In this document: piece after piece, positions 7,442-35,621 of the stretch
Layout: each line of letters opens with the position of its first letter
How positions within the stretch are numbered: the first letter of the stretch is position 1
From: Gemmatimonadota bacterium
Lineage (GTDB): Bacteria > ARS69
Assembly: GCA_021604925.1 (NCBI GenBank)
Contig: BQJX01000001.1
Span: 1 to 36,704, forward strand
Reading direction: 5' to 3'
Length of the DNA: 36,704 nt
Made by a program: the position numbers and the translations under genes
The notes under the pieces: model-generated
The model's database searches: none
What the model saw: only the letters and a program-made list of their open reading frames with translations
Told to the model about the DNA's origin: nothing

Positions 7442-7876
7442 GTGAAGCTCACAAGAAGACCGGCGGAGGACGCGGACAAGGCGTTCGTTCAAGATGCAAA
7501 TCGGGCGGCCTATGAGGATGTCGTCGTGCGTCAGTTCGGCCAGTGGGACGAAGCGTTTCACGAATACCACTTCAACAAGAAGTGGGAGGACGCCACGTTC
7601 GAGATCGTCGAGAGTCGCTCGGGCCCGGTTGGCGCCCTATGGACGACGGATGAAGGTGACCACTTGTGGCTTCGGGAGGTGTTCCTCCTTCCAGTCTTCC
7701 AGGGACAGGGGATCGGAACCGCCCTGATAAGGCAGGAACTCGCGAAGGCCCGCCGCTTCAAGAAACCGCTTCGATTGCGCGTGCTGCGGGAGAATCGCGC
7801 GCTCTCGCTCTATGAGAGGCTCGGGTTCTCCGTGTGTGGCGAAACTGAGACGCACTTCCTGATGGAAGCTGTCTAG
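7442..7876 (+). CDS. GNAT family N-acetyltransferase
   Basis: ORF 7301..7876. GTG 7442 follows GGGAGGAG. Motif A-like FQGQGIGTALIRQELAKA and C-terminal RALSLYERLGFSV. Confidence 0.8.
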   Translation: MKLTRRPAEDADKAFVQDANRAAYEDVVVRQFGQWDEAFHEYHFNKKWEDATFEIVESRSGPVGALWTTDEGDHLWLREVFLLPVFQGQGIGTALIRQELAKARRFKKPLRLRVLRENRALSLYERLGFSVCGETETHFLMEAV

Positions 7877-7915
7877 CCTGGGTCCGCAGCTGACGGATCG
7901 CGTCCGTCGGTAGCC
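7871..7915 (+). repeat. degenerate type A attC-like repeat (left-most copy)
   Basis: GTCTAGCC-TGGGTCCGCAGCTGACGGATCGCG aligns with the consensus CTAG-GGTTTGCAGCCGACGATCACCGCG. The GNAT stop codon lies inside the GTCTAGC box. Internal stem GACGGA/TCCGTC. Confidence 0.35.
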
Positions 7916-8173
7916 TATCCATCCCTGCCCACCTCCCCCCTTCCCATGTCACACCCAGCCGCCCCGGACGAGGGATTCGGCGAAGTCGCTGCGGTGGAAC
8001 GCGAATTCTGGCTCGGATGATAGGCCGGGTGCCCGGCAAGCGGACATTCCGCTTCGACGCCTGTGCCCAGCGCCCCGGTGACCGCTTTGGCCGAAACTGC
8101 CATCCATTGGCGGGTGTGCTTCCGCTGGGAGCGGGGCAACGCAGCGGATGTCGAGATTGTGGATTGTCACTAG
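7900..8173 (+). pseudogene. higB: higB-type (RelE/ParE superfamily killer) toxin, multiply frameshifted
   Basis: C-terminal frame reads ...IHWRVCFRWERGNAADVEIVDCH* (stop 8171-8173), the canonical HigB end. Upstream HigB-like segments (AKSLRWNANSGSDDRPGAR and VPGKR...GDRFGR) lie in two other frames. No intact ORF exists. Confidence 0.55.
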
Positions 8174-8176
8174 AGG

Positions 8177-8488
8177 TTGTCATGGCTAGTCGCAAGGTTT
8201 CCCCGATTCATTCCCGGAGAGCTCCTTCTTGAGGAGTTCCTGGAGCCGCTCGAGATGAGCCAGTATCGCCTGGCCAAGGACATCAGTGTGCCGCCGGGTC
8301 AGATCCATGAGATTGTCCATGGTACGCGGTCGGTCACAGCAGACACAGCTCTGCGCCTTGCTCGGTACTTCGGAACGCCTGAGCGCTTCTGGCTCAACCT
8401 TCAGACTCGCCATGATCTAGAGGTGGAGAAGGATCGTTTGGGCCGTCGTTTGGTCGCAGAGGTCCAGGTTCTCAAGAAGGCCAGCTAG
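8177..8488 (+). CDS. higA: HigA family antitoxin (XRE-type HTH)
   Basis: PGELLLEEFLEPLEMSQYRLAKDISVPPGQIHEIVHGTRSVTADTALRLARYFGTPERFWLNLQTRHDLE. The intact ORF needs TTG 8177. The canonical N-terminus MASRKVSPIH (ATG 8182) is in another frame because of one extra T at 8211/8212. Confidence 0.8.
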   Translation: MSWLVARFPRFIPGELLLEEFLEPLEMSQYRLAKDISVPPGQIHEIVHGTRSVTADTALRLARYFGTPERFWLNLQTRHDLEVEKDRLGRRLVAEVQVLKKAS

Positions 8489-8495
8489 AAATGAG

Positions 8496-8633
8496 ATCCA
8501 ACCAGGGTTTGCAGCAGACGATCACGGAGGCGCATACTGCGCTGTGAGCAACTCGGAATTGGGCTCCGCGGCTGGCCGAGAAGCGCCATGTGCATTTTCG
8601 CCGTCTGCGGTGCCCGCGGCTGCATCGCCAACC
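8496..8633 (+). repeat. type A attC-like repeat
   Basis: R''-like ATCCAAC (8496-8502, fits RYYYAAC), GGTTTGCAGC, TTGCAG 8509-8514 / CATACT 8533-8538 (18-nt spacer). Tail GGAATTGGGCTCCGCGGCTGGC...GCGGTGCCCGCGGCTGCA. The R' box is degenerate (GCCAACC). Confidence 0.6.
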
Positions 8634-8653
8634 GCGAGAAGGGGTGTTTCTGA

Positions 8654-9184
8654 ATGAGCGTGATTGACCAGAAGATTGTTGTCTCGACGTCTGTGGGTGT
8701 GCTCTCTGGCATCGCCTTTGCCACTTTGCTGGCACAAACCCCTGCCCCCGTAGTTCAAGATCTTGTCGAAGCGCGCGAGATCCGTGTCGTGAACGAGCTA
8801 GGCGACCCGGTCGTTCGTCTACTGAGCATGCCGGGAGGCGCTGGAGGCGTCGTTTCCGTCATTGACGATCAAGGTGCGGCAAGGGTCATGCTGGCAGCAA
8901 TCTTGCCGGGGACAGGAAACGCCAGTCTCGCAATCTCGGACCCGGGCGGAACGCCCATCGTACAGCTTGGTGGGGACGAATACGGGCAGTTGGCACTCCG
9001 TGCAGAGGGAAGGGACGCGGTGTGGGCTGGTCGGGATGATGCCGGCAATGGGTTCCTGAGCACCTGGTCTGCGGGTGGGAAGGAGACTGTGCACATCGGG
9101 TCTAGCAAGGTGGGGCACGGCGGCGTCGTCGAAGTGTACGACACCGAGGGCAACACCAGCGGGCGGACAGGCACGGGGAAGTGA
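8654..9184 (+). CDS. hypothetical membrane-anchored/secreted protein
   Basis: ORF 8654..9184. N-terminal hydrophobic segment VSTSVGVLSGIAFATLLAQ, Gly-rich repetitive body. No family recognised. Confidence 0.6.
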   Translation: MSVIDQKIVVSTSVGVLSGIAFATLLAQTPAPVVQDLVEAREIRVVNELGDPVVRLLSMPGGAGGVVSVIDDQGAARVMLAAILPGTGNASLAISDPGGTPIVQLGGDEYGQLALRAEGRDAVWAGRDDAGNGFLSTWSAGGKETVHIGSSKVGHGGVVEVYDTEGNTSGRTGTGK

Positions 9185-9217
9185 CCTAGTCCAAGTTGCA
9201 CCGGCCCCGTCCGGCCC

Positions 9218-9318
9218 TTCCAACTAGCGCTTGCCGCCGACGGATCGCCTGCGTCACGATGGTTGTGGATGCAACCACCGCGCCAAAGGCGCCGCAGCCG
9301 AAGCGCAACACGTTAGGC
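9218..9318 (+). repeat. type B attC-like site
   Basis: TTCCAAC-TA-GCGCTTGCCGCCGACGG ... CCGCAGCCGAAGCGC-AACAC-GTTAGGC. GCGCTT pairs with AAGCGC. The R' GTTAGGC (9312-9318) is a perfect GTTRRRY. Length is 101 bp. A type A left-end fragment GTCCAAGTTGCACCGG sits at 9189-9204. Confidence 0.6.
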
Positions 9319-9342
9319 GGTCCCGCAGAAGAGGAGGCATGT

Positions 9343-9825
9343 GTGGCCGTTCAGAGCAACGACGCTGCCGCGGTTCGCATCTTCCCGCCAGCTGTCCCGC
9401 TCGGCGTCGTGGTTCTCGGCGTCGTGCTGCACCATCTGGCACCCATCGAGTTGGACTTCTCTATCCCGCGTCCGGAGCGCTACTGGATCGGGGGTTTGAT
9501 CGTGGCCGGTGCCGTTCTTGGTCTGGGCCTGCCGTCCGTCGTGATGTTTCGGCGAGGTGGCCAGAGTGAGAATCCATGGAAGCCCACGACACACATTGAG
9601 GAGCGCGGCCCGTTTCGCGTGACGCGCAACCCCATGTACGTTCAGATGCTAGTGACATGCCTCGGGCTTGCAGTCGTTCTCATGAACTGGTGGGTGATGA
9701 TCCTCACGCCGATCGGCGCGTTGCTCCTCCGACAACTCGTGATTCTGCCGGAGGAGGAGTATCTGGAACGGAAGTTTGGTGACTCCTACCGATCATACAA
9801 GTCCAGAGTGAGGCGATGGCTCTAG
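9343..9825 (+). CDS. isoprenylcysteine carboxyl / phospholipid methyltransferase family membrane protein
   Basis: ORF 9196..9825. GTG 9343 lies 5 nt after GAGGAGG. GPFRVTRNPMYVQMLV...ILPEEEYLERKFGDSYRSYKSRVRRWL is typical of ICMT/PEMT-type enzymes. Confidence 0.8.
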   Translation: MAVQSNDAAAVRIFPPAVPLGVVVLGVVLHHLAPIELDFSIPRPERYWIGGLIVAGAVLGLGLPSVVMFRRGGQSENPWKPTTHIEERGPFRVTRNPMYVQMLVTCLGLAVVLMNWWVMILTPIGALLLRQLVILPEEEYLERKFGDSYRSYKSRVRRWL

Positions 9826-9859
9826 TTCCTGGTCACAGGCCTCGCGAAGCCGAGGTTCC

Positions 9860-9945
9860 GTCCAACGAGGGTTTGCAGCCGATGATCACCGCGGCGCATA
9901 CTGGGCGAAGGCGAGCACCCGCTGATGACGGTCGAGGCGGCCTAG
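9860..9945 (+). repeat. type A attC-like repeat, 3' half replaced
   Basis: GTCCAAC (9860-9866, perfect RYYYAAC), TTGCAG 9873-9878 / CATACT 9897-9902 (18-nt spacer). The tail runs directly into a truncated GNAT reading frame. Confidence 0.55.
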
Positions 9946-10152
9946 CGGCCCCGTCGTCCGTTCCGCGGGTACGGACGGTTGGCGACCGAGGCGTTGATCG
10001 AGCTGATGGTAGCGCAGGGATGCAAGGAGGTTCTGGTTGGCTATGCTGATGACAATCAAGTCGCCCGTAGCCTCTACCACAGCCTCGGATTCATCGAACA
10101 AGGGTTAGGCGAAGAAAGCGACATGGTGTCCCGATTCATTGTCGGAGCGTAG
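9946..10152 (+). pseudogene. GNAT acetyltransferase, C-terminal fragment only
   Basis: The frame opening after the stop at 9943-9945 reads RPRRPFRGYGRLATEALIELMVAQGCKEVLVGYADDNQVARSLYHSLGFIEQG...* . This covers motif A (RGYG) onward. No N-terminal half and no start codon. Confidence 0.6.
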
Positions 10153-10167
10153 GCGATCGGGAGGCGT

Positions 10168-10316
10168 GGCCTGTTAGCGTTTGCAGCCGACGAGCACCGC
10201 GGCGCGCGGCGCATACTGGGAAGTAGCTTGAATTGGGGTTTCGCGGCTGGCGCGGGTTGCTTCGTCTGGTCCTCCGCAATCCGCGCCGCTCGGAGCTGAG
10301 ACCCACGCCGTTGGCC
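10168..10316 (+). repeat. type A attC-like repeat, complete
   Basis: GGCC...GCGTTTGCAGCCGACG ... CGGAGCTGAGACCCACGCC-GTTGGCC (R' 10310-10316). The two arms pair with bulges. TTGCAG 10181-10186 / CATACT 10212-10217 with an expanded 25-nt spacer (extra GCGCGGC). Confidence 0.65.
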
Positions 10317-10360
10317 GCACGAACTCATGGAGGCATCCTCCCATCCTCTGGCTTCGTCTC

Positions 10361-10879
10361 TTGGGATTCCTTGGTCTCGTGTCGGTCACGCACGCGGGAG
10401 AACTCGTGCTCCCGCTGGACATTGGGGTTGGAGGCCTCACATCTCCGCACAGCGCGGTCATGTCGATCTCGATTCCCTCCGAGGTCCGAGACGCCGTAGC
10501 CGTCTCTCTAGAGATCGCCGGTACGTCGCGGGCTGGACTTGTCTCGAGCGTCCAGAAGCCTGAAGAGACGCGCGTCGGTCTACCACACGTGAGCTTCTAC
10601 CTTCCGGCTCCGGGCGTAACTCGCGGGGCATGGGGCGGTTCGACATACCTGGAGGAAGGGTCGTTTCGACTCCGCCTGCCAATGCTTTGGTCCCACCATG
10701 TCGCCAGGTCGGATCGGCTGAGCCCGCAATGGGGCGCGCTGGATTCAGCCATTGTGTCGGCCCGGTTGACAATGGATGAGGGAATGGCGGCTGGAGGTCT
10801 TTGGCGAGTTGAGCCATCCGTTCGGATCTGGGATGCCTCATTGGTCTTCGAGTTGCCTGACAACGAGGCGGCCAACTAG
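10361..10879 (+). CDS. hypothetical protein (possible signal peptide)
   Basis: ORF 10361..10879 (TTG start, uncertain). Protein-like composition. The stop TAG lies inside GGCCAAC-TAG of the next repeat. Confidence 0.5.
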   Translation: MGFLGLVSVTHAGELVLPLDIGVGGLTSPHSAVMSISIPSEVRDAVAVSLEIAGTSRAGLVSSVQKPEETRVGLPHVSFYLPAPGVTRGAWGGSTYLEEGSFRLRLPMLWSHHVARSDRLSPQWGALDSAIVSARLTMDEGMAAGGLWRVEPSVRIWDASLVFELPDNEAAN

Positions 10880-10970
10880 CGGTTGCAGCCGACGTCCTGC
10901 CAGTGTCATCCTGGCTGCGAGGCACCCCGGGCGCCATCGGCGTCCGCGGCTGATCCGCAACCCGTTGGCG
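10870..10970 (+). repeat. attC-like site, short variant of type A without the CATACT segment
   Basis: GGCCAAC-TAGC-GGTTGCAGCCGACG ...48 nt... CGTCCGCGGCTGATCCGCAACC-C-GTTGGCG. Three nested arm pairings (GCCAAC/GTTGGC, GGTTGC/GCAACC, AGCCGACG/CGTC..GGCT) with bulged bases. Length is 101 bp. Confidence 0.65.
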
Positions 10971-11058
10971 CACGAGGTCTTCGATGCATCTTCTGTGCTG
11001 GAATCGGGTCCGAGACGCAGACCAATGGATGGCCGTCTTCTCGTCGCACAAGACGGCG

Positions 11059-11160
11059 CGCGGCAGACGATCGCGGCGGCGCACACTGGAGAAGATCGGT
11101 TGGGGCGCTGTCGGAGCGGCGCCGACAGGCGTCGGCTCTTCGCCGTCCTCGGTCCCCACA
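11059..11160 (+). repeat. type A repeat lacking the R''/GGTTTGCA left end
   Basis: GCGGCAGACGATCGCGGCGGCGCACACTGGAGAAGATCGG...GGCTCTTCGCCGTCC aligns with the 13111 copy (ACTGGAGGAAGATCGG...GGCTCTTCGCCATCC). Internal stem CTGTCGG/CCGACAG. Confidence 0.45.
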
Positions 11161-11242
11161 GCAAGAATGCCGAGCACTAGGCAGCCTACTCTCTGGGCGC
11201 CGCGAACGCCCGAACCAGCCCTGCGACAACGGAGTTCGAACC

Positions 11243-11962
11243 ATGAACCACGACATCCCGCTCACACCTGTACGTGCTCGCCTCCTCGGACGCTGCGTCG
11301 GACTCTTGTTCCTAGTTACCTACGCAACGTCGATACCTGCGCTGCTGCTGTTTGGTCCCGTGCTGAACGACGCGCACTACGTGACCGGGGCGGGCTCTGA
11401 CACGCAGATCCGGTTCGCCGCACTGCTCGAGTTCATCCTGATCGTGGCGAACATAGGAAGTGCGGTCGTACTCTACCCGCTCCTGCGACGCTCCTTCCCT
11501 GCCGGTGCGATTGGTTTCGTCGCCGCCCGCATCACCGAGAGCGCCTTTATCGGCATCGGCATTCTCAGCGTGCTTGGCGTCGTGTCGCTTCGCGCATCGG
11601 GGAGCGATGGCGCGGCCCTTCCCATTGTCGCCGAGGCGCTCGTGGCGGTGAAGGACTGGAGCTTCCAGTTCGGGCCCGGTTTCGTCGTACCGATCGGCAA
11701 CGGCATGCTGCTCGGATGGATGATGTACCGCTCAGGTATGGTGCCGCGGCGCGTTGCGATGCTCGGGCTCGTCGGAGGTCCGGTCCTCTTCGCCGCCAGT
11801 GTCGGCATCCTTTTCGGCGGGCTCGACAAGGGCGACCCGTTGTACGCCGTCGCCGTGGCGCCGGAGTTCATCTGGGAACTGGCACTCGGTGTGTACCTGA
11901 CAGCAACCGGCGGTCGGGTTGCCGGACTGCTCGACCACGACTCAGTTCCATCGGCTTGCTGA
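11243..11962 (+). CDS. DUF4386-like integral membrane protein
   Basis: ORF 10883..11962. ATG 11243 (MNHDIPLTPVRARLLGRCVGLLFLVTYATS...). Multiple TM helices. Family assigned from memory of the DUF4386 pattern. Confidence 0.7.
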   Translation: MNHDIPLTPVRARLLGRCVGLLFLVTYATSIPALLLFGPVLNDAHYVTGAGSDTQIRFAALLEFILIVANIGSAVVLYPLLRRSFPAGAIGFVAARITESAFIGIGILSVLGVVSLRASGSDGAALPIVAEALVAVKDWSFQFGPGFVVPIGNGMLLGWMMYRSGMVPRRVAMLGLVGGPVLFAASVGILFGGLDKGDPLYAVAVAPEFIWELALGVYLTATGGRVAGLLDHDSVPSAC

Positions 11963-11975
11963 GCCAAGGTGGCAG

Positions 11976-12482
11976 ATGAGCATCACTCCACACCACGTGC
12001 TTGGCGCCATCGCGATCGGCGTGGGCGCCAGTGTCCTCATGGACGCATGGAACCTCTTCCTGAAACGAGCATGCGGCGTACGGTCGCTTGACTACTGCCT
12101 GCTCGGCCGCTGGCTACTTCACATGCCGGAGGGCACCTTCTTGCACTCGAGCATCGCCGTGGCACCGCCAAGACGTGGTGAATGCGCCGCGGGCTGGGTC
12201 GCCCACTACACGATCGGCGTCGGGCTCGCGACCGTGTTCCTCGCTCTGGCACCCGCCGACTGGCTTGAGCGACCAACCCTTCCGCATGCCCTTCTGTTTG
12301 GCATCGTCACAGTGGTGTTTCCGCTCTTCATACTGCAGCCTTCCCTCGGTCTCGGGGTCGCATCTTCAAAGACGCCCAGGCCTATGCAAGCTAGGCGCAA
12401 GAGCTTTGTGACACATATGGTCTTCGGAGTCGGATTGTATCTATGCGCCTTGGCCCTGAACCATCTACCATTCGCTGCCTAA
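11976..12482 (+). CDS. DUF2938-like membrane protein
   Basis: ORF 11919..12482. ATG 11976. GASVLMDAWNLFLKR...LLGRWLLHMPEGTF...GWVAHYTIG. The stop TAA lies inside the GCCTAAC box. Confidence 0.7.
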   Translation: MSITPHHVLGAIAIGVGASVLMDAWNLFLKRACGVRSLDYCLLGRWLLHMPEGTFLHSSIAVAPPRRGECAAGWVAHYTIGVGLATVFLALAPADWLERPTLPHALLFGIVTVVFPLFILQPSLGLGVASSKTPRPMQARRKSFVTHMVFGVGLYLCALALNHLPFAA

Positions 12483-12539
12483 CAAGCGTTGCAGCGGTCG
12501 GCCCGCTACGTGGTCCGCCGCTGAACCATGCTGCCAACC
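12477..12539 (+). repeat. short (about 63 bp) attC-like site
   Basis: GCCTAAC (perfect RYYYAAC) -AAGC- GTTGCAGCGG ... CCGCTGAAC -CATGCT- GCCAACC. The L''/L' arms pair with one bulge. Layout resembles the 60-bp aadA-type attC, but the R' position holds GCCAACC instead of GTTAGGC. Confidence 0.5.
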
Positions 12540-12553
12540 ACGACCAGGAACCC

Positions 12554-12919
12554 ATGCTCAAGCACGCCATTCCCGTAATCCACTGCACTTCGTCCGCTCG
12601 TGCGGAGCAGTTCTACTGCCGGCTTCTCGGGTTCGATCGTCGATTCGCGTACCGACCCCAGGAGTCACTCCCGGATCCCTGCTATCTGGGGCTTCTCCGG
12701 GACGGCGCTGCCATTCATGTCTCGTCGTTCCCTGGAGACGGAGCTGTTGGATCTGCCGTCTACGTCGTCGTTGATGACGTGGATACGCTCTACAAGGAAC
12801 TGGCGGGTCGGGGAGTCCAGATCTCGCTGGAGCCCACTGACCAAACGTGGGGGAACCGCGAGATGTATGTCGACGATCCGGACGGCAACAGCGTGCGCTT
12901 CGTGCAAGAGGGTGGCTAA
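12554..12919 (+). CDS. VOC/glyoxalase superfamily protein (bleomycin-resistance-protein-like)
   Basis: ORF 12443..12919. ATG 12554. IPVIHCTSSARAEQFYCRLLGF...TDQTWGNREMYVDDPDGNSVRF. The stop lies inside GGCTAAC. Confidence 0.85.
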   Translation: MLKHAIPVIHCTSSARAEQFYCRLLGFDRRFAYRPQESLPDPCYLGLLRDGAAIHVSSFPGDGAVGSAVYVVVDDVDTLYKELAGRGVQISLEPTDQTWGNREMYVDDPDGNSVRFVQEGG

Positions 12920-12953
12920 CTGGGGTTTGCGGCACTGGGAGTCGGCAGCAGCC
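12914..12953 (+). repeat. type A repeat with internal deletion
   Basis: GGCTAAC-TGG-GGTTTGC|GGC|ACTGGGAGTCGGC corresponds to the 16167 copy (GGTTTGCAGCGGACGATGACGCGGCGCATACTGGGAGTCGCG) minus about 24 nt. Confidence 0.4.
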
Positions 12954-12990
12954 TGGGATCGCTTCGCGATGCCTGTTCGAATGAGTTTGA

Positions 12991-13119
12991 GGCCCTGAAC
13001 GGCGATGCGAGGACTACACGGTGTCAGAAAATGGTCCCGCACGGGCGTTCTATCAAGGGCTCGGTTACGTTGACAGGCCACACTACGAGCTGCTTGAGAA
13101 GCCCCTGCGGGGCCCCTAG
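12991..13119 (+). pseudogene. GNAT acetyltransferase, extreme C-terminal fragment
   Basis: The frame after the stop at 12988-12990 reads GPERRCEDYTVSENGPARAFYQGLGYVDRPHYELLEKPLRGP*. The N..A..FY..GLGY tail is the GNAT C-terminal signature. No start codon and no N-terminal domain. Confidence 0.45.
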
Positions 13120-13253
13120 CTAGGGTTTGCAGATGATGATCCCCGCGGCGCATACTGGAGGAAGATCGGAAGCGGGCTCGGCGTCCGGTGGAGAGTCGCC
13201 ATCTGGCTCTTCGCCATCCGCGGTGCTCGCGGCTGAGATCCTTGCCGCCAGGC
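13111..13253 (+). repeat. type A attC-like repeat, long form
   Basis: CCCCTAGCTAG-GGTTTGCAG, TTGCAG 13127-13132 / CATACT 13151-13156 (18-nt spacer). Tail GAAGATCGGAAGCGGGCTCGGCG...GGCTCTTCGCCATCCGCGGTGCTCGCGGCTGAGATCC-TTGCC-GCCAGGC (mutated R'). Confidence 0.6.
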
Positions 13254-13299
13254 GGCAGACCAAGCTGTCTGGAAGACCACGGATGGAAGCGACTTCGAA

Positions 13300-15185: not shown

Positions 15186-15220
15186 CGAGCGCCTGCAGCG
15201 GAGACCCAGTGCCGTTGGCG
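15177..15220 (+). repeat. miniature attC-like remnant
   Basis: ACCATCTAG-CGAGCGCCTGCAGCGGAGACCCAGTGCC-GTTGGCG. It joins the GCAGC left arm directly to the conserved right end (compare GGAGCTGAGACCCACGCC-GTTGGCC at 10290-10316). Confidence 0.4.
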
Positions 15221-15239
15221 TGCGACCGGGAGAGGCAAT

Positions 15240-16166: not shown

Positions 16167-16248
16167 GGCCAACTAGGGTTTGCAGCGGACGATGACGCGG
16201 CGCATACTGGGAGTCGCGCCGTGAGGCCGCGCGGAGATCGAGTTGCAG
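16167..16248 (+). repeat. type A attC-like repeat, short tail
   Basis: GGCCAAC-TAG-GGTTTGCAGCGGACGATGACGCGGCGCATACTGGGAG. It is plus-oriented although the upstream gene is on the minus strand. Confidence 0.6.
16180..16208 (+). promoter_or_regulatory. sigma70-like promoter candidate inside the repeat core (representative of 12 copies)
   Basis: TTGCAG (16180-16185) - 17 nt - CATACT (16203-16208), 58 nt upstream of ATG 16267. The same hexamers and 17-18 nt spacing recur in 11 of the 12 repeat copies carrying both hexamers. No experimental support. Confidence 0.3.
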
Positions 16249-17076: not shown

Positions 17077-17129
17077 ACGCCGTCCGTAGGGCGCCCGGTT
17101 GAAACCGGGTAACAAACGGGAAGCTGCTG

Positions 17130-18038
17130 ATGGAAACCATCGATCAAGCTCAGTTCAACTTCAACCCGACGATCGGTCTGGCTGTCCTGGTCATGGTGGG
17201 CTTCCTGGTGTTCGCGGTGGCTCTGGACCTGACGTGGGGACAGTTCTCGAGAGTGCTCAAGAAGCCGAAGGCGCCAGGCATCGGACTCGTCGCCCAGTAC
17301 GTCTTCCTGCCCGCCGTCGCGTTCGGAGTCGGCGTGCTGTGGGTCGGCACGCCGAGCATCGCGCTCGGTCTCCTGCTGGTCGCGTGCTGCCCGGCCGGAG
17401 CGTTGTCGAACTACCTGACGGGGGTGGCCAGGGGAAACGTCGCCACGTCCGTCAGCATGACGGCGATCTCCACCGTCTTCAGCATCCTGCTCACCCCGCT
17501 TCTGTTCGGGTTCTGGGCTTCGAGGAATCCCGAGACGGCGGCCGTTCTCCGGCAGATCAGGACGGATCCCATGAGGGTAGTGGTGGCGCTTCTGATCATG
17601 CTGGTCGTTCCTGTTACGGTCGGCATGTGCATTCGCGCCCTGCGGCCGGCAACCGCGGACAACATTCGCACCCCGACCCGCCGTATCGCCGGGGGCGTGT
17701 TCGCGGTCGTCGTCGCGACCCTCATCCTCGGCAACATCCAGTTGCTCGGCAACTTCGCCCGGGAGGCGCTCCCCCCGGTGCTCGTCACCTTTGGCATTGC
17801 CGTGGCTCTCGGCTGGGGACTCGCGTGGGTCAGCGGGCTGCCGGCGCCTGACCGGCGCGCGGTGACGCTTGAGGTCGCGTTCCAGAACGTTGCTCTCGCG
17901 ATCGGAATGGCGGTCGCGTTCTTTCCTTCCCTCGCGGGAGTCGCGATCACGGCGATCCTGTGGGGCATCGTCCACCTTTCAGTCGGGTTCGCTATCGCCG
18001 TGGCGTTCAGGCGCAGTTCCGGACCGCATGTTGCCTAG
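17130..18038 (+). CDS. bile acid:sodium symporter (BASS/SBF) family transporter
   Basis: ORF 17130..18038. About 9-10 TM helices. LLLVACCPAGALSNYLTGVARGNVATSVSMTAIST is the SBF signature region. Confidence 0.85.
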   Translation: METIDQAQFNFNPTIGLAVLVMVGFLVFAVALDLTWGQFSRVLKKPKAPGIGLVAQYVFLPAVAFGVGVLWVGTPSIALGLLLVACCPAGALSNYLTGVARGNVATSVSMTAISTVFSILLTPLLFGFWASRNPETAAVLRQIRTDPMRVVVALLIMLVVPVTVGMCIRALRPATADNIRTPTRRIAGGVFAVVVATLILGNIQLLGNFAREALPPVLVTFGIAVALGWGLAWVSGLPAPDRRAVTLEVAFQNVALAIGMAVAFFPSLAGVAITAILWGIVHLSVGFAIAVAFRRSSGPHVA

Positions 18039-18045
18039 CGACAGA

Positions 18046-18167
18046 ACTCAACGGACGGCGCTGCGAACCGCCACCAAGAGGAATGCCCATGATTCCTGTT
18101 TCCGGCCGCATCCATGTCAGGGGGGCGCGCCAGCGCCGGTCGCAGCCGAAGCGCAACACCGTTGGAC
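18046..18167 (+). repeat. type B attC-like site
   Basis: ACTCAAC (18046-18052, perfect RYYYAAC) -GGACGGCGCTGCGAACCGCC ... GGTCGCAGCCGAAGCGCAACACC-GTTGGAC (18161-18167, perfect GTTRRRY). The arms pair (TCAACGG/CCGTTGG, TGCGAACCG/CGGTCGCA). Length is 122 bp. Confidence 0.6.
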
Positions 18168-18200
18168 GGAAGGAAGAGCAATGCGCAGTGAGGATGCAGA

Positions 18201-19214: not shown

Positions 19215-19353
19215 TGCAAAGGATTTGCGGCAGACGATCACTGCGGCGCATACTAGGTGGAAGGCGGCTTCCGCGTGGACGTCCGGCCACCTCCGTCACC
19301 GAGGCGGCGCGCGCCCCCCGGGCGTCGCACGCGCCCGCGGCTCAACCTCAACC
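19215..19353 (+). repeat. type A attC-like repeat
   Basis: GTGCAAAGGATTTGCGGCAGACGATCACTGCGGCGCATACTAGG. TTGCGG 19225-19230 / CATACT 19249-19254 (18-nt spacer). The tail ends CGCCCGCGGCTCAACCTCAACC. Plus-oriented after a minus-strand gene. Confidence 0.55.
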
Positions 19354-22704: not shown

Positions 22705-22705
22705 T

Positions 22706-23376: not shown

Positions 23377-23673
23377 ATGGATGCAGGGCTGGTCGGCGCG
23401 GTGATCGGAGGCGCGGTGGGATTGGCCGGCGGGGCTGTCGGCACCTACTTCAGTATTCGGAACACGGACGGCCCGACGGAGCGGGCCTTCATGATCAAGG
23501 TGTCCATCATCGGGTGGGTTGCGGTCTTGCTGTTCGTCGGGCTGATGGCGCTGCTTCCCGGTCCCTACCGGCACCTGTTGTGGATTCCGTACGGAGTGCT
23601 GTTGCCACTCGGTATCATCAAGACCAACCGGCAGGTGGCAAAGATTCGAGAGGCCGAGCGGCGCGCCAACTAG
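23377..23673 (+). CDS. small membrane protein, hypothetical
   Basis: ORF 23362..23673. ATG 23377 lies 7 nt after GGAGGG. Three hydrophobic segments. The stop lies inside CGCCAAC-TAG. Confidence 0.6.
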   Translation: MDAGLVGAVIGGAVGLAGGAVGTYFSIRNTDGPTERAFMIKVSIIGWVAVLLFVGLMALLPGPYRHLLWIPYGVLLPLGIIKTNRQVAKIREAERRAN

Positions 23674-23824
23674 GGTTTGCCGGAGACGAGCGCGAGGCGC
23701 ATACTGGCAGAAGCCCCGCTCGCATCGACTCGTGCCACATGGACTCGGGCTCCGCGGCGAGATGACATTCGCCATGGCTGTCGTTGCCATGCGGTGCTCG
23801 CCGCTGCAACCCTGGCCATTGGGC
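23664..23824 (+). repeat. type A attC-like repeat, complete long form
   Basis: CGCCAAC-TAG-GGTTTGCCGG. TTGCCG 23677-23682 / CATACT 23700-23705 (17-nt spacer). Tail ...TTCGCCATGG...CATGCGGTGCTCGCCGCTGCAACCC-TGGCC-ATTGGGC. GCAACCC pairs with GGGTTTGC, and the R' box has one mismatch. Confidence 0.65.
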
Positions 23825-23847
23825 GGCCACAGTAGGTACGGGAAACG

Positions 23848-25530: not shown

Positions 25531-25547
25531 CGTACGCGGATGCTCCT

Positions 25548-25650
25548 GCATTGGGATTGCAGCAGATGAGGACCGCGGCGCATACTGGGGATCCGTTGGA
25601 GGGCTCTGCACCCGGGCGGCGAGGGTCGGCTGGCGTCCGCCCGCGCTGGA
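25548..25650 (+). repeat. type A attC-like repeat, degenerate left box
   Basis: GCATTGGGATTGCAGCAGATGAGGACCGCGGCGCATACTGGGG. TTGCAG 25557-25562 / CATACT 25581-25586 (18-nt spacer). Tail GATCCGTTGGAGGGCTCTG resembles the 11059 copy. Confidence 0.5.
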
Positions 25651-25656
25651 AGCGAG

Positions 25657-26073
25657 GTGACCGTGGTGGACGAAGCCGCATCCGAAGCGGCCCGCTTGGC
25701 CGTCGGCGAAGTCTATGCGGAGTACGCCGCGAGCATGCTTGCAGGCAGTGCGTCTCGATACGGTGCCCTGTGGACGGACGATGGTGTCCAGATGGCGCCG
25801 GACGCCATGCCCGTCGTCGGGCGGCAGGAGATCGAGCGCGGCATCGGCTTGGTGTTCGAAAGTATCGAGTTCGTGGCCTTCGAGATTCTCGTGGACGAGA
25901 TCCAGGTCGCCGGCGACTGGGGGTACTGCAGGGGAACCTTCACGAACACGGTGGTCCAGCGCGGGGCTGAGGAGTTGCACCATTCCGCCGGCAAGTTCCT
26001 GACCATCCTGGCCCGCGGCTCCGACGGATCCTGGAAGGTCCATCGGGACATGTTCAATTCCAACCCGACATGA
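25657..26073 (+). CDS. SnoaL-like / DUF4440 (NTF2 fold) protein
   Basis: ORF 25657..26073 (GTG start region after GAGGTGA). YGALWTDDGVQMAPDAMPVVGRQEI...GKFLTILARGSDGSWKVHRDMFN. Confidence 0.75.
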   Translation: MTVVDEAASEAARLAVGEVYAEYAASMLAGSASRYGALWTDDGVQMAPDAMPVVGRQEIERGIGLVFESIEFVAFEILVDEIQVAGDWGYCRGTFTNTVVQRGAEELHHSAGKFLTILARGSDGSWKVHRDMFNSNPT

Positions 26074-26300
26074 TCAAGCCGCCCCTACCGTCCAGCTCTT
26101 CGCGACACCCGCAGGTGCAGCGCACATCGTCGGTCGAACGGGGCCGAAGCAACGCTCAACATTCCCCATCCCTAGCGGGGAGCTGGTCGGCGCCATCCGC
26201 CTGATGTCCTTGTCCGAGGCCCATTCGCGAGCGCAGCTCGGCCTCCCGAGTCCGAGTGTTTCCTGCGGACGGCAGCGCCCGTAGCTACTACCCTGTGCCC

Positions 26301-28985
26301 ATGCGTGAGAAAATCGGATCCTTCGAAATCCTCCGAGAGCTCGGCCGTGGCGGCATGGGTGTGGTGTACCTGGGCCGGGACACCCGGCTCGATCGGGAAG
26401 TGGCCATCAAGGTGCTTCCCGAGCACTTGGCCTCCGATTCGTCGCGGCTGGCGCGCTTCGAGCGCGAGGCGAAGACGCTCGCCAGCTTGAGCCATCCGAA
26501 CGTGGCCGGGATCTACGGGGTCGAGGAGCAGGACGGCTCCAAGTACCTCGTGCTCGAGTTCGTGAACGGCGAAACGCTCGCGGATCGGCTGGATCGAGGG
26601 CCGCTGCCCGTTCACGAAGCGATCGAGTGCGCGATTCAGATCAGCGCGGGGATGGCGGCCGCGCACGAAGCCGGCATGATCCACCGCGACCTCAAGCCGG
26701 CCAACATCATGGTCACGCCGGACGGCGTGGCCAAAGTCCTCGACTTCGGCCTTGCGAAGGCGGACCCCACCAGTTCGCTTTCGGGAGATTCCGCGCCGAC
26801 GGCCACTCAGCACCAGTCGCATCACTCGCCCACCATCGAAGGCGCGATCCTGGGGACCGTCGGGTACATGTCGCCGGAACAGGCGCGCGGCCGACGCATC
26901 GACAAGCGCACGGATACCTGGTCGTTCGGAGTGGTGCTCTACGAGATGCTGACCGGCACGAACCCGTTCGTCGGCGAGACGGCAAGCGACTCGATCGGGG
27001 CGATCCTGCACAAGGACTTCGACCTGAGCCGGCTTCCCGCTGACACTCCTGCCAACGTCCGCCGGGTCCTGGAGCGCTGTCTCGAGCGCGATCCGTCCAA
27101 GCGGCACCGGGACTTCGGCGACCTGGAGATCGAACTGCGCCGGGAGGAGCCCGCTTCTCCTGCCCAGGCACCTCCCGCGCCGCCCGGGCGGCGGCTGCTT
27201 GGCGTGGGAGCGGCCGGAATCGCACTGGCCACCGTCGCGGCGACCGTGACCTGGTTCGCGGCCACGCGGGTCCCGCTCGAGTCCGATCGGTCGGTCCGAA
27301 AGACCGATCTCCTTCAGGTGGAGTGGTCGGACCGGCCCGGGAGCATGAAGCCCGCGATCTCGCCGGACGGGAAGCGCGTGGCCTTCATCCTCGACGATCA
27401 GGTTCAGGTTCGGTCGCTCGACGCGTTCGAGGTCGTGCCGGTTCCGGGCACGGAAGGAGCCGAGACCGTCTTCTGGTCCGCGGACAGCCGCAACCTCGGG
27501 ATCACGACGGACGAGGGCATCTTCACCTTGTTCGGGCTCGCCGGTCGCCCGATGCCCGTGTCCGAGCTCAGGACCCAGTACTCGCAGACCTGGACTCAGG
27601 ACGGACGGATTCTCGCGTCGGTCGACGGGCAGGAGTTCGTCGGGATCGTTTCGATTCCCGAGATGGGCGGAGAAGCGCGGTTGGCGCTGGAGGCCGATCC
27701 GGAGTCGGTCGTGGACTATCACGATTTCGCGGTGATCCCGGGCACGAACGTGACCGTGGCCATCCAGCACTCGATCAACGGCGAGTCTCCGCTCGTGGCC
27801 CACGACGGAACCCGAACCGTGACGATCGCGGATTTCCCCAACCTCTTCAGCTCGGGCTGCGCGTGGTCGCCGACGGGCCACGTGTTGTTCACCGTGGGGG
27901 TGGGAACGCTTCAGGACTTGTGGGCGGTTCCCTTCTCGCCCGAGCGCATGGAACGGACGGGCGAGCCGTTTCTGGTGATGCCGAACGTGGGTGTCCCGTC
28001 GGTCGCGAACGACGGCACGATCGCGGTTCTCCGCGGCCTCAGCGACCCGCCTACGGGAAGTGAGCTCGGTTGGGTGCATCCGGACGGCGAGTTCGAGAGC
28101 ATCAGCGCGAGAGAGGACCCCGTCGCCTTTCCGGTGGCATCGCCCAACGGCAACCTGTTGGCGTTCGCCGGGGATATCACCGCGAGCTCTGCGGACGTAT
28201 GGGTTCACGACTTCGAACGAGGGTTCAGTCGGCGGATCACGAAGGACGATGAAGTTCGCATCCCGATCGCCTGGTCACCGGATGGTTCCGAGATCATGAT
28301 CCTGAGCCTGAATCTATCCGGCGAACAGGGCGTAACGACGCACTTCCACGCGGCCGATGGCAGCGGCGAGACGCGCGAGCCGATCCATGCCTTCGTTCTC
28401 GGCGTGGATCGGAGCTGGAAGTCGGCAGCCACGATCCAGTGGTCGCTCGTCAGTCGAGACACCGAGAAGGTCTCGGTCATCCAGCTGCACGATCCCTCCG
28501 CGGTCCTGAACACGATCGACACCCCGGGGCTCCCGGGGCTCGGCTTCGGGGAGCTCATCCGCGTGGCGATCAGCCCGGACGGGAACCACATGCTCTACGA
28601 GTCGTCCCGGTCCGGGCGGGAGGAGATCTACTGTGTGGAGTGGCCGACCGGTGCGGGCCTGCAGCAGGTCTCGACCGAGGGAGGGAAGGACCCCAACTGG
28701 TCAACCAACGGGTCTCGCGCGATCTTTTCGAGCAACGAGGACGGCGAGTTCCTGCAGGCCGATGCGAACCGGAACGGCCCCCTCTCCTTCTCGCGCCCTC
28801 GACGGCTCTTTCCGGACGGGGTTGATTCATCGGACCTCGCGCAACTCAGTCCGACCCACCAAGAGGGCCAACTGGTGGCGGTCCGCTCGAGCAGCGATGA
28901 GGTGCCACGGGATCCGTACTTCATCTCGATCATCGAGAACTGGCACGAGTCGTTCCGGGAACACGAGAGCGGACGTGCGCCTTGA
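26301..28985 (+). CDS. Ser/Thr protein kinase with TM segment and C-terminal PD40/TolB-like beta-propeller
   Basis: ORF 26256..28985. ATG 26301. [43 protein letters not shown] segment [23 protein letters not shown]. Repeated (I/W)SPDG... PD40 units. Confidence 0.9.
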
Positions 28986-31973: not shown

Positions 31974-32053
31974 TTGGCGAGAGGCGATGGCCGCCGGGTT
32001 CCGATCCGTCCGGCGGATGATGAGCCGTTCTCCGGGAGAGCGCGTTCGGAGGC

Positions 32054-32190
32054 AGCCAACCAGGGTTGCAACCATCGATCACCGCGGCGCATACTGTCTA
32101 CAGACGCGCAAGGGTTTCGCGAGTGACTCAACGCTGCCAGGGCATCTTCGCCATCCGCGGTACTCGCAACTGGACCGCCTACCGTGGGGC
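32054..32190 (+). repeat. type A attC-like repeat, long form
   Basis: AGCCAAC-CAG-GGTTGCAACC. TTGCAA 32066-32071 / CATACT 32090-32095 (18-nt spacer). Tail GGCATCTTCGCCATCCGCGGTACTCGCAACTGGACCGCCTACCGTGGGG parallels the 13111 copy. Confidence 0.6.
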
Positions 32191-32198
32191 TGACGCTC

Positions 32199-33674: not shown

Positions 33675-34418
33675 CTAGGTAGATCCATCCTCCTTGCCGC
33701 CGGCGTTGTAGATGACCGGCATCCGACCCTGCCAATCGGACCAGACGCCTGCGTCCGTGATGAGGTCCGCCATGAAGTGGGCGACATTGATCCGACTCGT
33801 CACGCCGGCGTCGAAGATGGCGCTGCGAATCGGCGAAGGGTGCAGGCTGTACTCCGACACCGTGTCCTCGTCGACCAGTCCATCCGGACGCACCGCAACC
33901 CACCCGAGCCTGGGATCCTCCTGGCCGACTTTCCGGCGCAGGTAGTCGGCGGCCTGCTCGTTGTCCACGTGCGGCGGCAGCAACAGGCGAAGCAGGACCA
34001 GGACGCTCTTCTGGGCGAACGAGACTTGTTCTTCAAGGTCCCGGTTGCGGTTTCCGGTGGTGTTCATGAGCACGAACTTGGCGGGTAGGTCGCGCTCTTG
34101 CTCTCGTAAGGCCTCGCAGATCCGACGCGTCGCGTCCGTGACCAGTCTTCGAGGCGATCCGTACACGCCCTGGAACGTCAGGTTGTGGCCCAGGCAGGAC
34201 GCGGCGGCACCGCATCCCGACACGAGCTGCGCGATGTCCCGGTCGCTCATCTCGGCGATGCTGCCCTCGATCACGGCCAGGTTCGGGTCACACAGGAGCT
34301 CGTCTCCCAGCCTGGACGGCGTGCGCGCGACCGCCTTCACGCGCTGCCCCCTCCCCAGAAGCTCCCTCACCAGGAGTCGCCCGGTGGCGCCGGTGGCGCC
34401 CACGATCAGGGAAGTCAT
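33675..34418 (-). CDS. NAD(P)-binding (NAD(P)H-binding / atypical SDR) protein
   Basis: ORF 33675..34898. ATG 34418 gives MTSLIVGATGATGRLLVRELLGRGQRVKAVAR (Rossmann motif). The upstream part of the long ORF runs through the repeat and is rejected. Confidence 0.8.
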   Translation of the reverse strand: MTSLIVGATGATGRLLVRELLGRGQRVKAVARTPSRLGDELLCDPNLAVIEGSIAEMSDRDIAQLVSGCGAAASCLGHNLTFQGVYGSPRRLVTDATRRICEALREQERDLPAKFVLMNTTGNRNRDLEEQVSFAQKSVLVLLRLLLPPHVDNEQAADYLRRKVGQEDPRLGWVAVRPDGLVDEDTVSEYSLHPSPIRSAIFDAGVTSRINVAHFMADLITDAGVWSDWQGRMPVIYNAGGKEDGST

Positions 34419-34504
34419 CTTGCCTCTTCGTTCCGGTGGGTGGATGGTCGTCCGTTCGCCGACGATAACACGGAAAGGGAAGAACGTTGGCCGCGCCGCG
34501 GGGC

Positions 34505-34552
34505 GACTTGCATCCGACGATGACCGCGGCGCATACTGGTGCCGCGGCAACC
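34505..34552 (+). repeat. type A core, short copy
   Basis: GACTTGCATCCGACGATGACCGCGGCGCATACTGG-TGCC-GCGGCAACC. TTGCAT 34508-34513 / CATACT 34532-34537 (18-nt spacer). A GTTGGCC box lies upstream of the core at 34486-34492. Confidence 0.5.
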
Positions 34553-34577
34553 ATTCCGAGTCCCAGCAAGGACCCCA

Positions 34578-35162
34578 ATGAACATGGAACCACGGAACGT
34601 CACCTACTTCGAGACGCCACAGGCGTTTCGGGGCTGGCTGGCGAAGAACCATGCGTCTTCCGATGAGCTCTGGGTTGGATACTGGAAGAAGTCGGTCGGG
34701 CAACCGAGTATTGCCTGGGAAGAGTCCGTGGACGAGGCGCTGTGCTTCGGTTGGATCGACGGCATCCGAAAGCGAATCGATGACCGGGCGTTCACGATTC
34801 GTTTCACGCCCAGGCGTGCGAAGAGCATCTGGAGCTCTCGGAACCTGGAGCGGTTCGCGGAACTGTCGGCGGCGGGGCGGGTCTCGGCTGCAGGGCACGC
34901 AGCGTTCCGAAAGCGGGTCGAAGCCCGCTCAGAGGTGTACTCCTATGAGCAGGGGAGCGAGCCCCAGCTGCCGGCAGACTACGTCGCCCGGCTTCGCGAG
35001 AACCGGGCCGGTTGGCTCGACTGGGAGTCGCGACCGCCGGGATACCGACGGCAGGTGGCGCATTGGGTCATGAGCGCCAAGAGGGAGTCGACCCGGGAGC
35101 GTCGGCTGGCTGCCCTGATCGAGGATTCGGCGGCGGGCCGCAAGATAAAGCCACTCCGGTAA
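34578..35162 (+). CDS. YdeI/OmpD-associated family protein (DUF1801-related)
   Basis: In frame with ORF 34539..35162. ATG 34578. FETPQAFRGWLAKNHASSDELWVGYWKK...EALCFGWIDGIRKRIDD...FTPRRAKSIWS...HWVMSAKRESTRERRL. Confidence 0.8.
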   Translation: MNMEPRNVTYFETPQAFRGWLAKNHASSDELWVGYWKKSVGQPSIAWEESVDEALCFGWIDGIRKRIDDRAFTIRFTPRRAKSIWSSRNLERFAELSAAGRVSAAGHAAFRKRVEARSEVYSYEQGSEPQLPADYVARLRENRAGWLDWESRPPGYRRQVAHWVMSAKRESTRERRLAALIEDSAAGRKIKPLR

Positions 35163-35212
35163 CTCCCGGTAGCGGGGGAGGTAGGCGATCCGATGGTCGG
35201 AGGAGTCGCGCG

Positions 35213-35515
35213 ATGACGTTCATGGACTGGTCGGATGCAAACGGCATGTACGGCCTGCTTCTCGACTTCGTCGCCGACGCAAGAATGGACTGCAACGCGG
35301 ACTCGGATCGGGAACGTTTCCTTTCCGAACTGCTGGCCCGGCTGCGGGCCACGGAACGGGAACTTGCGGAGGCCTCGCCGGCCGTCATCATCCGCACGTT
35401 GAGAGAAACCCAGGAGTCGATCGATCCCGAGTTCGCGGGCGATCCGGTCGTGGAGCATCTACGAGACTGCATTGAAGAGATCGAGCGAGTTCAGGGAGAC
35501 GAGCCGGCCAACTAG
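35213..35515 (+). CDS. hypothetical acidic protein
   Basis: In frame with ORF 35012..35515. ATG 35213 lies 7 nt after GGAGGAG. The stop TAG lies inside GGCCAAC-TAG. Confidence 0.55.
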   Translation: MTFMDWSDANGMYGLLLDFVADARMDCNADSDRERFLSELLARLRATERELAEASPAVIIRTLRETQESIDPEFAGDPVVEHLRDCIEEIERVQGDEPAN

Positions 35516-35621
35516 GCGCGGTGGACGCGCACTCCTGCCACACGAGCGTCTCGCCCGCCGCACGCAACTACCGTTTGCCCCGGGTCCGCCGTGCGGCGCA
35601 TACTCCGCAGGTTCGTTGGCC
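35506..35621 (+). repeat. attC-like site, last copy, variant architecture
   Basis: GGCCAAC (35506-35512) and GTTGGCC (35615-35621) are perfect inverted complements. The core is displaced about 60 nt rightwards: CGCAAC-TACC-GTTTGCCC, TTGCCC 35575-35580 / CATACT 35599-35604 (18-nt spacer). Confidence 0.6.

Follow-up and report, generated by a model that had tools for sequence, protein, structure and literature searches.

The DNA analysed here is a contig of a Gemmatimonadota bacterium (GenBank assembly GCA_021604925.1, contig BQJX01000001.1, positions 1 to 36,704). This whole stretch of 36.7 kb, which has a GC content of 64%, is referred to as the window. Its intergenic DNA between about 7.9 and 35.6 kb contains a family of repeats, and these repeats are a genuine family of integron attC sites. 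The locus is very probably a chromosomal integron cassette array that has no integrase in cis, i.e. a cluster of attC sites lacking integrases (CALIN), and that is mostly in a state of decay. It adds an example to a known kind of element and does not represent a new kind: a large, eroding CALIN whose sites belong to an environmental attC family of reverse integrons.

The repeats as a family of attC sites

A search of the window with GGCGCATACTG, in which one mismatch at most was allowed, gave 14 occurrences, compared with 0.46 expected from shuffled sequences. All 14 were on the plus strand. An nhmmer profile of the left ~65 nt found 11 strong left-arm copies (E 1e-17 to 3e-11) and a few weak additional ones, again on the plus strand only. 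The original prediction, made from the sequence of the window by eye, had described a single repeat family in one orientation from 7.87 to 35.62 kb, which is what we find. It had also placed a copy or remnant in nearly every intergenic gap; this was an overstatement, as by a hand count only about 15 of the gaps of 30 nt or more, about 27 in number, have one. The coordinates it gave for the best copies were recovered almost to the base (9218-9318, 10870-10970, 10168-10316 and 23664-23825), and the three copies that it noted behind minus-strand genes (16168, 19218 and 34505) are real, each being found by nhmmer and each still in the plus orientation. Its limits of the array held only in part. 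Plus-strand repeats do fill the interval from 7.87 to 35.62 kb, but the array extends past both ends (on the left it continues for about 5.5 kb outside the window, on the right in the form of remnants), and the copy with which it was said to begin, at 7871, is visible by eye alone and not significant by nhmmer, covariance model or pair test.

Inspection of the gaps and alignment of the copies distinguished a short form of about 100 nt, found at 9218-9318 and 10870-10970, from a long form of about 150 nt, in which GATCACCGCGGCGCATACTGG and further conserved blocks are inserted after the left arm. Five long copies are of full length (8494, 10168, 13112, 23662 and 32052), while six retain only the left ~45-70 nt (9860, 16168, 19218, 19805, 25546 and 34505). 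One remnant consists of the right arm alone (15186), and divergent or composite sites are present at 12475, 18044 and 35504. Rfam, searched at the gathering threshold for the whole window and at E ≤ 1 for 7.8-26 kb, gave nothing relevant and no attC match. Nor did a plasmid collection contain a match to the attC of the repeat or any similarity to plasmid-borne sequence, and the literature searched had no mention of DRR328264 or OZ244210, the sequencing run and the chromosome that are introduced below.

The identity of the repeat was established with sequence data to which the window did not contribute. A degenerate pattern of the long form occurred at one locus among 185,579 species genomes, on the complete chromosome OZ244210.1 of a metagenome-assembled genome (locus L003). 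L003 carries 12 co-oriented copies with a spacing of about 620 bp and one open reading frame (ORF) per unit, and the copies are 75-83% identical to the short copies of the window. They are canonical attC sites with R'' GCCTAAC and R' GTTAGGC. Their left arm, GCGGTT[G]CAGCCG[A]CGG, pairs with CCGCGGCTGAACCGC, leaving two unpaired bases 6 bp apart, and one of the copies is of the long form and has perfect R boxes. The short-form pattern was found on more than 120 metagenome contigs, and wherever a contig had several matches these were all on the same strand (25/25).

For a covariation analysis, 27 dereplicated sites, all of them from metagenomes, were aligned as bottom strands and scored against a structure of 22 pairs, which consists of a 7-bp R box, a spacer and an L stem of 6+6+3 bp with two one-base bulges. 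In this alignment 93.3% of the cells were paired, compared with 20-44% when the partners were slid by 1-3 columns. The R-box pairs were 89% and the L stem 95% paired. Compensatory change was seen at 7 pairs, including 5 of the L stem, and one L-box pair occurs as U-A (11 sites), C-G (8) and G-C (7). The single-base bulges, T and C, lie on the bottom strand's 3' arm, 6 bp from each other, and the loop measures about 50-90 nt. [quoted passage not shown] The bottom-strand fold that had been proposed as a check, with paired R and L boxes and extrahelical bases, two of them in this family, is in this way supported by covariation.

In the published geometry of attC sites, the bottom strand runs from RYYYAAC (5' end) to GTTRRRY (3' end), and its L'' arm carries the extrahelical bases (PMC5027507). 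The extrahelical bases, unpaired central spacer and variable terminal structure of the present family agree with the criteria of the same paper. The top-strand consensus reads RYYYAAC-TA-GCGnTT[G]CAGCCG[A]CGG, followed by a variable loop and by CCGCGGCTGAAnCGC-(4-6 nt)-GTTRRRY. The RYYYAAC-like and GTTRRRY-like ends that had been read from the window are present at the level of the family and at 9218 (TTCCAAC/GTTAGGC), 10870 (GGCCAAC/GTTGGCG), 18046 and 35506. On one or both sides they fail at 8496, 10170, 13115, 23666 and 32054 and in every copy that consists of a left arm only.

The bottom strand of the attC of the class 1 cassette aadA7 reads GCG[T]CGGCTT[G]AAC. In architecture the window family is the same, and its L'' arm is nearly so (bottom strand CCG[T]CGGCTG[C]AAnCGC); both have two extrahelical bases 6 bp apart. 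In contrast to aadA7, the second extrahelical base is C and not G, and the spacer on the R'' side is 2 nt.

Integrases of related arrays and their absence from the locus

A tblastn screen of the fetched loci identified IntI-like C-termini on two contigs, L016 and L009. The best NCBIfam model for both was TIGR02249 (integron integrase; 94 and 74 bits), compared with 58 and 43 bits for Xer. On these contigs the 3' end of intI is followed by about 260-370 nt, GTTAGG, a first ORF and then an attC of the family of the window. A homologue with 94% identity to a cassette protein of L003 led to two more contigs with intI, L124 and L125. Their integrase is full length (325 aa), scores 370-374 bits with TIGR02249, for which the curated cutoff is 265, contains the IntI-specific insertion and is 48% identical to IntI1 over 321 aa without gaps. 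At L124 3909-5120 and L125 158-1240, intI is followed by an attI-like GTTAGGC and then by cassettes whose attCs score 49-100 bits, so that in both contigs the array opens with intI and a neighbouring attI. The attC family is linked to bona fide integron integrases in metagenomes, and its physical linkage to IntI and attI suggests that IntI may recombine it. The attI-like GTTAGGC lies about 225-370 nt past the intI stop codon in L124, L125, L009 and L016, which are complete integrons with attCs of this family.

On all four contigs intI is transcribed in the direction of the cassettes, which is a known arrangement termed 'unusual' or 'reverse' (PMC6557892). They share this co-directional intI with the reverse integrons of Treponema denticola, Chlorobium phaeobacteroides and Blastopirellula marina described there. 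However, the arrangement is seen in the relatives of the window only, as the window itself has no integrase. No Phage_integrase domain was found by Pfam on any ORF scanned, the Logan gene tables list none, and six-frame tblastn searches with IntI1 and with the IntI of the lineage gave nothing for the window or for the ~10 kb adjoining it at each end (best E 0.23 and 2.9). An intI pseudogene was likewise absent from the window and from 10 kb on each side. The predicted lack of an integrase in the window was borne out, and the search for intI in the genome that had been suggested was negative for the window and its flanks. Had the array the reverse layout of its relatives, one would look for the integrase on the left side of the leftmost attC (L002 13983-14130, in the left flank). 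In its place this attC abuts a divergent gene on the opposite strand, which encodes a 758-aa beta-propeller protein with a type IX secretion system (T9SS) tail. The same ORF was considered as a novel recombinase and rejected, as it is a beta-propeller with a T9SS sorting tail.

A CALIN is defined by at least two attC sites without a nearby intI (Cury et al. 2016, PMC4889954). In the interval 8494-13257 there are two strong and four marginal sites on one strand, with neighbours less than 4 kb apart. Under the 4-kb clustering rule the confident call spans about 8.5-13.3 kb, and the rest is recognisable as an array through its remnants alone. A complete integron, with intI plus attI and Pc at the array head, is not found at this locus. 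Covariance-model hits, covariation, the sister array L003, the IntI-linked relatives and the lack of a local intI all agree with the predicted reading of a CALIN or of an array distant from its integrase. With published CALINs (PMC4889954) the locus shares at least two attC sites on one strand, the lack of intI or its pseudogene within 10 kb, a cargo unlike resistance cassettes and a plausible origin through intI loss or rearrangement. It differs from them in size, with 28 kb that contain about 20 sites or remnants (about 50 kb if the extensions are counted) against an average of 5 attC sites, and in that most of its sites are too eroded for a strict attC model.

On this basis a history of the locus can be proposed. 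Each unit would once have been a mobile cassette, a gene followed by its attC site, the bottom strand of which would fold into a 7-bp R box, an unpaired spacer and an L stem with an extrahelical T and C on the L'' arm. The integron integrase would recognise this hairpin and cut at the AAC of R'. The array probably descended from a complete reverse integron with intI, attI and cassettes on one strand, whose integrase was then lost or separated; without recombination the sites would decay and the cassettes would become fixed chromosomal genes.

Erosion of the sites and other readings of the array

We built a covariance model (R1) from the 27 metagenome sites, without any sequence of the window, and ran it unfiltered. 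The top hits in the window were 10868-10974 (79.3 bits, E 1e-19) and 9216-9322 (70.0 bits, E 4e-17). Marginal hits (E 0.002-0.03) were obtained at 12475, 13112, 23662, 10173 and 8494 (21.1, 20.8, 18.4, 17.2 and 17.0 bits), and weak ones of about 10-12 bits (E 0.5-2.4) at 32052, 18044, 35504 and 19803. All R1 hits on repeat copies have the plus polarity of the cassettes, while the remaining weak hits (E ≥ 0.4) are on both strands. The covariance-model check that accompanied the original prediction, carried out here with a family-specific model and independent sequences, came out in its favour. As a benchmark, sites of complete integrons that were not in the training set score 49-104 bits and those of L003 55-104 bits. 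Intact long-form sites reach 74.3 (L003) and 60.7 bits (L125), compared with 12-21 bits for the long-form copies of the window. As intact long-form sites score high elsewhere, the long copies of the window are truly eroded and not penalised for their length.

The copies were also tested individually by an architecture-aware count of the 22 pairs, with p values from a shuffled null. The copies at 9218 (17/22) and 10870 (19/22) were significant (p < 0.004), those at 10170, 13115 and 23666 less so (15-16/22, p 0.02-0.03), and eight copies had no right-arm partner above the shuffled null. For the L box the figures are 13 of 15 pairs each at 9218 and 10870, and 10-11 of 15 at 10170, 13115 and 23666. 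Of the 11 long-form left arms 5 no longer have the AAC of R'', and only a minority of copies keep the GTT of R'. The bulged, imperfect pairing of the arms that had been described therefore stands statistically for two copies and weakly for three, but the eight partnerless copies do not show it. Only 9216-9322 and 10868-10974 keep all recombination features and, judged by their sequence, look competent; they would be excisable only if IntI were provided in trans. In the other copies R', the right arm or the pairing is gone, so that the cassettes to which they belong would now be fixed chromosomal genes. Most of the 28 kb thus appears to be a fossil array, which is probably largely inactive now.

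Several points weigh against this assignment. Complementarity and folding energy of single copies are mostly the same as in shuffled sequence: whole-element DNA folding energies did not depart from shuffles (z -2.0 to +0.5), although in DNA of 64% GC this measure is uninformative, and no copy exceeded shuffles in Smith-Waterman arm complementarity, in which the gap and mismatch penalties are too harsh for bulged arms. As R1 is family-specific, it judges divergent attC types such as those at 18044 and 35504 weakly. Some units are oversized or comprise several genes (a SulP transporter, a 909-aa kinase and a 6.5-kb unit at 25.5-32 kb), and because of these unusually large units part of the interval from 13 to 35 kb could be ordinary chromosomal DNA with interspersed repeat remnants. 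The inspection of the genome, which comes from a metagenome assembly, covered ~64 kb, so that an intI may lie elsewhere in it. In the window two Logan contigs of run DRR328264 are joined; one ends inside a repeat at 8571, which is the usual pattern of a repeat-induced assembly break.

Tentatively, the left block of about 45 nt may have been kept mainly as a promoter (-35 TTGCAG, 17-18 nt, -10 CATACT), in which case its attC ancestry would be incidental to its present function. In the 11 long-form left arms CATACT is invariant (11/11), as is TTGC, in the arrangement TTGC-N19/20-CATACT. The spacing of TTGCAG and CATACT is 17-18 nt in 10 of the 11, whereas the AAC of R'' is kept in just 6. The box lies 34-143 nt 5' of the start of a plus-strand gene wherever a start is assignable (8 of 11 copies), three copies are in divergent intergenic regions, where divergent genes need a promoter, and the points at which the copies are truncated vary but are all downstream of the box. 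There is also a precedent in Vibrio sp. DAT722, where a sigma-70 promoter bridges an attC and its -35 box is common to several attCs (Michael & Labbate 2010, PMC2945992). That case shares with ours a promoter-like element at an attC in a large array and a box common to several sites; here, by contrast, the left arm of the attC would contain the two putative hexamers, and this at 11 sites. However, a scanner for the sigma-70 consensus called none of the TTGCAG/CATACT sites (TTGCAG matches 3/6 of TTGACA, and this consensus may not be that of the host). The box is also present in the intact long-form attC of L003, and as CACACT in L125, and so may be inherited attC sequence. In addition, there is a detection bias, as the copies were found by means of the block that bears the box.

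That the retained left-arm box may be a cassette promoter is the one modestly new point of the analysis. A fuller version, which we regard as doubtful, is that the long-form attC carries a complete promoter (TTGCAG-N17/18-CATACT) in its L'' arm, near the loop, and that selection after the loss of the integrase kept a half-site of ~45 nt while the R boxes and the right arm decayed. If this were true, a silent bank of mobile cassettes would have been turned into individually transcribed fixed genes, with the recombination site exapted as a portable promoter. A promoter in the half-site would also bear on the long-standing question of how distal cassettes are expressed in large arrays.

To return to the decaying CALIN, we consider it unlikely that the array is instead a detached or distal part of an active sedentary chromosomal integron with its IntI elsewhere in the genome, and that the apparent decay is a mixture of attC types. 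Such a reading would fit the two fully canonical sites, whose scores are within the range of complete integrons, and the split of the array by a block of ECF sigma and CHAT genes (see below), which suggests rearrangement or insertion. For about half of all CALINs the replicon also encodes IntI, and arrays can be split by rearrangements (Cury et al., PMC4889954). It does not account well for long-form copies with broken R boxes and arms that score 12-21 bits when intact ones elsewhere reach 61-74 bits, or for six to eight copies without any right arm. Apparent gene fragments, namely a GNAT fragment and a HigB-like frame with stops, point to erosion, and active arrays such as L003 have near-identical attCs. 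The Vibrio cholerae superintegron-type arrays of Vibrio cholerae repeats (VCRs) are similar to the locus in being long chromosomal arrays of small unrelated cassettes with a repeat-like attC family, a toxin-antitoxin component (HigA here) and cargo of the GNAT, glyoxalase and methyltransferase type. Unlike them, the window has no intI, attI or Pc at an array head, and its attCs are heterogeneous and largely decayed. It is the sister array L003 that is VCR-like in the homogeneity of its attCs.

A repetitive extragenic palindrome (REP), a miniature inverted-repeat transposable element (MITE) or a generic hairpin terminator unrelated to integrons would also be intergenic, palindromic and GC-rich, and attC hairpins have been proposed as transcription terminators (PMC8876359), but such an origin is highly improbable in view of the strict polarity relative to the genes, the cassette-sized spacing with one ORF per unit in L003, the linkage to IntI and attI, a covariation that fits attC architecture with asymmetric bulges, the confinement of the long-form pattern to one locus among the species genomes, the rarity of terminator-like sites (3 found against 10.8 expected from shuffles) and the finding that ~13 kb of flank outside the array has no copies, which contradicts the dispersed MITE or REP behaviour that the original prediction had named as its counter-evidence.

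Taken as a mostly decaying CALIN, the locus does not overturn the current understanding of integrons. It provides a well-documented large chromosomal cassette array from an uncultivated, probably non-proteobacterial lineage. The attC family that it defines has 'reverse' integron integrases and is abundant in metagenomes from freshwater, sediment and soil. The array is caught in mid-decay, with intact sites, eroded sites and half-sites together, which makes it useful for studying the origin of CALINs and the fixation of cassette genes. The family-specific consensus and model can be used to mine cassettes from the lineage.

Individual sites, cargo genes and flanks

All sites of the window are on the plus strand. 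At the left end, 7871-7915 is a possible left-arm remnant, GTCTAGCCTGGGTCCGCAGCTGACGGATCGC, recognised by its likeness to the short-form left arm; the stop codon of a GNAT gene (7301-7876) falls within it. It is followed by a degraded long-form attC of full length that has lost R' (8494-8644; nhmmer E 5e-16, R1 17.0 bits, E 0.025, 13/22 pairs), the copy in which the Logan contig ends. The first intact short-form attC, 9216-9322 (R1 70.0 bits), has the terminal boxes given above and a bulged L box. A long-form left arm alone is found at 9860-9925 (nhmmer E 1.4e-17, no right-arm partner), with a truncated GNAT fragment behind it at 9979-10149 (weak GNAT match in Pfam). The degraded long-form attC at 10168-10316 (nhmmer E 5.5e-13; 15/22 pairs, p 0.03; R1 17.2 bits for a hit from 10173) has lost R'' (GGCCTGT) and retained R' (GTTGGCC). 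In this copy a 7-nt tandem duplication (GCGGCGC GCGGCGC, 10199-10212) precedes CATACT, so that TTGCAG and CATACT are 25 nt apart where they would otherwise be 18 nt apart. Were the box a promoter, its spacing would be destroyed in this copy alone.

The second intact short-form attC, 10868-10974 (R1 79.3 bits), has R boxes that pair in the fold, and a partial long-form fragment, the spacer and the CACACTGG box, follows at 11053-11096 (nhmmer E 1.5e-5). The site at 12475-12543 is a marginal, attC-like one of 69 nt with R'' GCCTAAC and an R' without GTT (R1 21.1 bits, E 0.0018). The R boxes of the degraded long-form attC at 13112-13257, CCCTAGC and GCCAGGC, contain neither AAC nor GTT (nhmmer E 1.7e-15; R1 20.8 bits with 10 broken pairs; 15/22 pairs, p 0.03). 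The right arm alone, with R' GTTGGCG, is present at 15186-15222 (right-arm hidden Markov model (HMM), E 7e-4). A long-form left arm without a partner lies after a minus-strand cupin gene at 16168-16224 (nhmmer E 6.5e-15), and a methyltransferase gene starts 34 nt past its CATACT.

The divergent attC-like site at 18044-18171 (R'' CTCAAC, R' GTTGGAC) has a right arm of the short-form type (right-arm HMM E 7e-4) and R boxes that pair in the fold, with an R1 score of just 11.6 bits (E 0.8). A 34-nt direct repeat with 74% identity is found at two gene ends, 18029-18062 and 22702-22735 (TGTTGCCTAGCGACAGAACTCAACGGACGGCGCT and TGATGCCCAACAACGGCATGCATCGGACGGCGCT), and may mark a second, divergent type of attC left arm. 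Two incomplete long-form copies follow: a left arm alone without R'' or a partner, behind a minus-strand SnoaL gene (19218-19278; nhmmer E 2.3e-14), and, supported also by alignment, a left arm and middle block without the right arm (19805-19875; nhmmer E 2.2e-15, R1 9.9 bits).

The degraded long-form attC at 23662-23828 (nhmmer E 1e-12; R1 18.4 bits, E 0.01; 16/22 pairs, p 0.017) has R'' CGCCAAC and R' ATTGGGC, in which the crossover G is mutated. The copy at 25546-25613, a long-form left arm and middle block that has lost R'', starts directly past the SulP stop codon (nhmmer E 8.5e-14 and alignment; no partner). Another long-form attC of full length, degraded and without R', is found at 32052-32194 (nhmmer E 4.4e-13 and alignment; R1 12.4 bits, E 0.48). 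At 34505-34554 a left arm alone stands in a divergent intergenic region (nhmmer E 3.1e-11, no partner), and the start of an OmdA-family gene is 40 nt past its CATACT. The last site, 35504-35621, is composite, with R'' GGCCAAC, an internal left-arm-like copy with GCGGCGCATACTC and R' GTTGGCC; it has 7-bp R-box pairing in the fold and an R1 score of 10.4 bits (E 1.8). Three ORFs, 10361-10879, 23362-23673 and 35012-35515, have as their stop codon the TAG that directly follows AAC in the repeat.

The cargo, as seen in Pfam scans and Logan gene calls, comprises about 33 mostly small, unrelated genes between 8177 and 35162, mostly on the plus strand, and is typical of sedentary chromosomal integrons. 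Among the small genes are those for a HigA antitoxin, a PEMT/ICMT methyltransferase, several GNATs, glyoxalases and SAM-methyltransferases, as well as SnoaL/DUF4440, DUF1801, cupin, NmrA, DUF4386, DUF2938, RibD_C and OmdA proteins. That the units are short and functionally unrelated, as predicted, is mostly true, except for a few large genes such as SulP (560 aa) and the Ser/Thr kinase (909 aa). Directly 5' of the intact HigA gene (8177-8488), a frame at 7901-8173 ends in a HigB-toxin-like C-terminus, CFRWERGNAADVEIVDCH and a stop codon (8117-8173). Its two in-frame stops give it the look of a toxin pseudogene whose antitoxin neighbour survives. In Pfam there was no confirmation of this remnant, of a second GNAT fragment or of the fragments at 21.3-21.8 kb. 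The GC content at third codon positions (GC3) is 0.81-0.84 in the genes for an SBF transporter (17103-18038), SulP (23836-25530), SnoaL (25570-26073) and the Ser/Thr kinase (26205-28985), compared with 0.73-0.77 in most other array genes, and suggests different origins or residence times for the larger units. For gene calling the contrast in GC3 was too low to be useful.

To the right of the window, small cassette-like genes continue for about 8 kb, with the repeat present as remnants only. On the left there is a block of about 7 kb (window 198-6025 and L002 8371-9246) with genes for an extracytoplasmic function (ECF) sigma factor, a putative anti-sigma factor (called from a weak zf-HC2 match), a right-handed beta-helix protein and a 1037-aa TPR-CHAT protein. 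Beyond it, small co-oriented genes (L002 9389-14130) are accompanied by two good attC sites, L002 12833-12941 (R1 65.4 bits) and the leftmost attC (37.5 bits). The block splits the array of the window from this co-oriented cassette segment, and may be an insertion or the boundary between two arrays. The leftmost attC has a variant R box, CTAGC...GCTAG, in which AAC has become AGC and GTT has become GCT on the two arms, so that 7/7 positions pair without the canonical cleavage triplet; a partial version of this variant is seen in the window at 13114-13253. Matches to the C-terminal sorting domain of the T9SS (Por_Secre_tail), which are weak or faint and hint at a host of the FCB group, are seen in the proteins on either flank of the array, encoded at L002 14283-16559 and L001 19422-20486.

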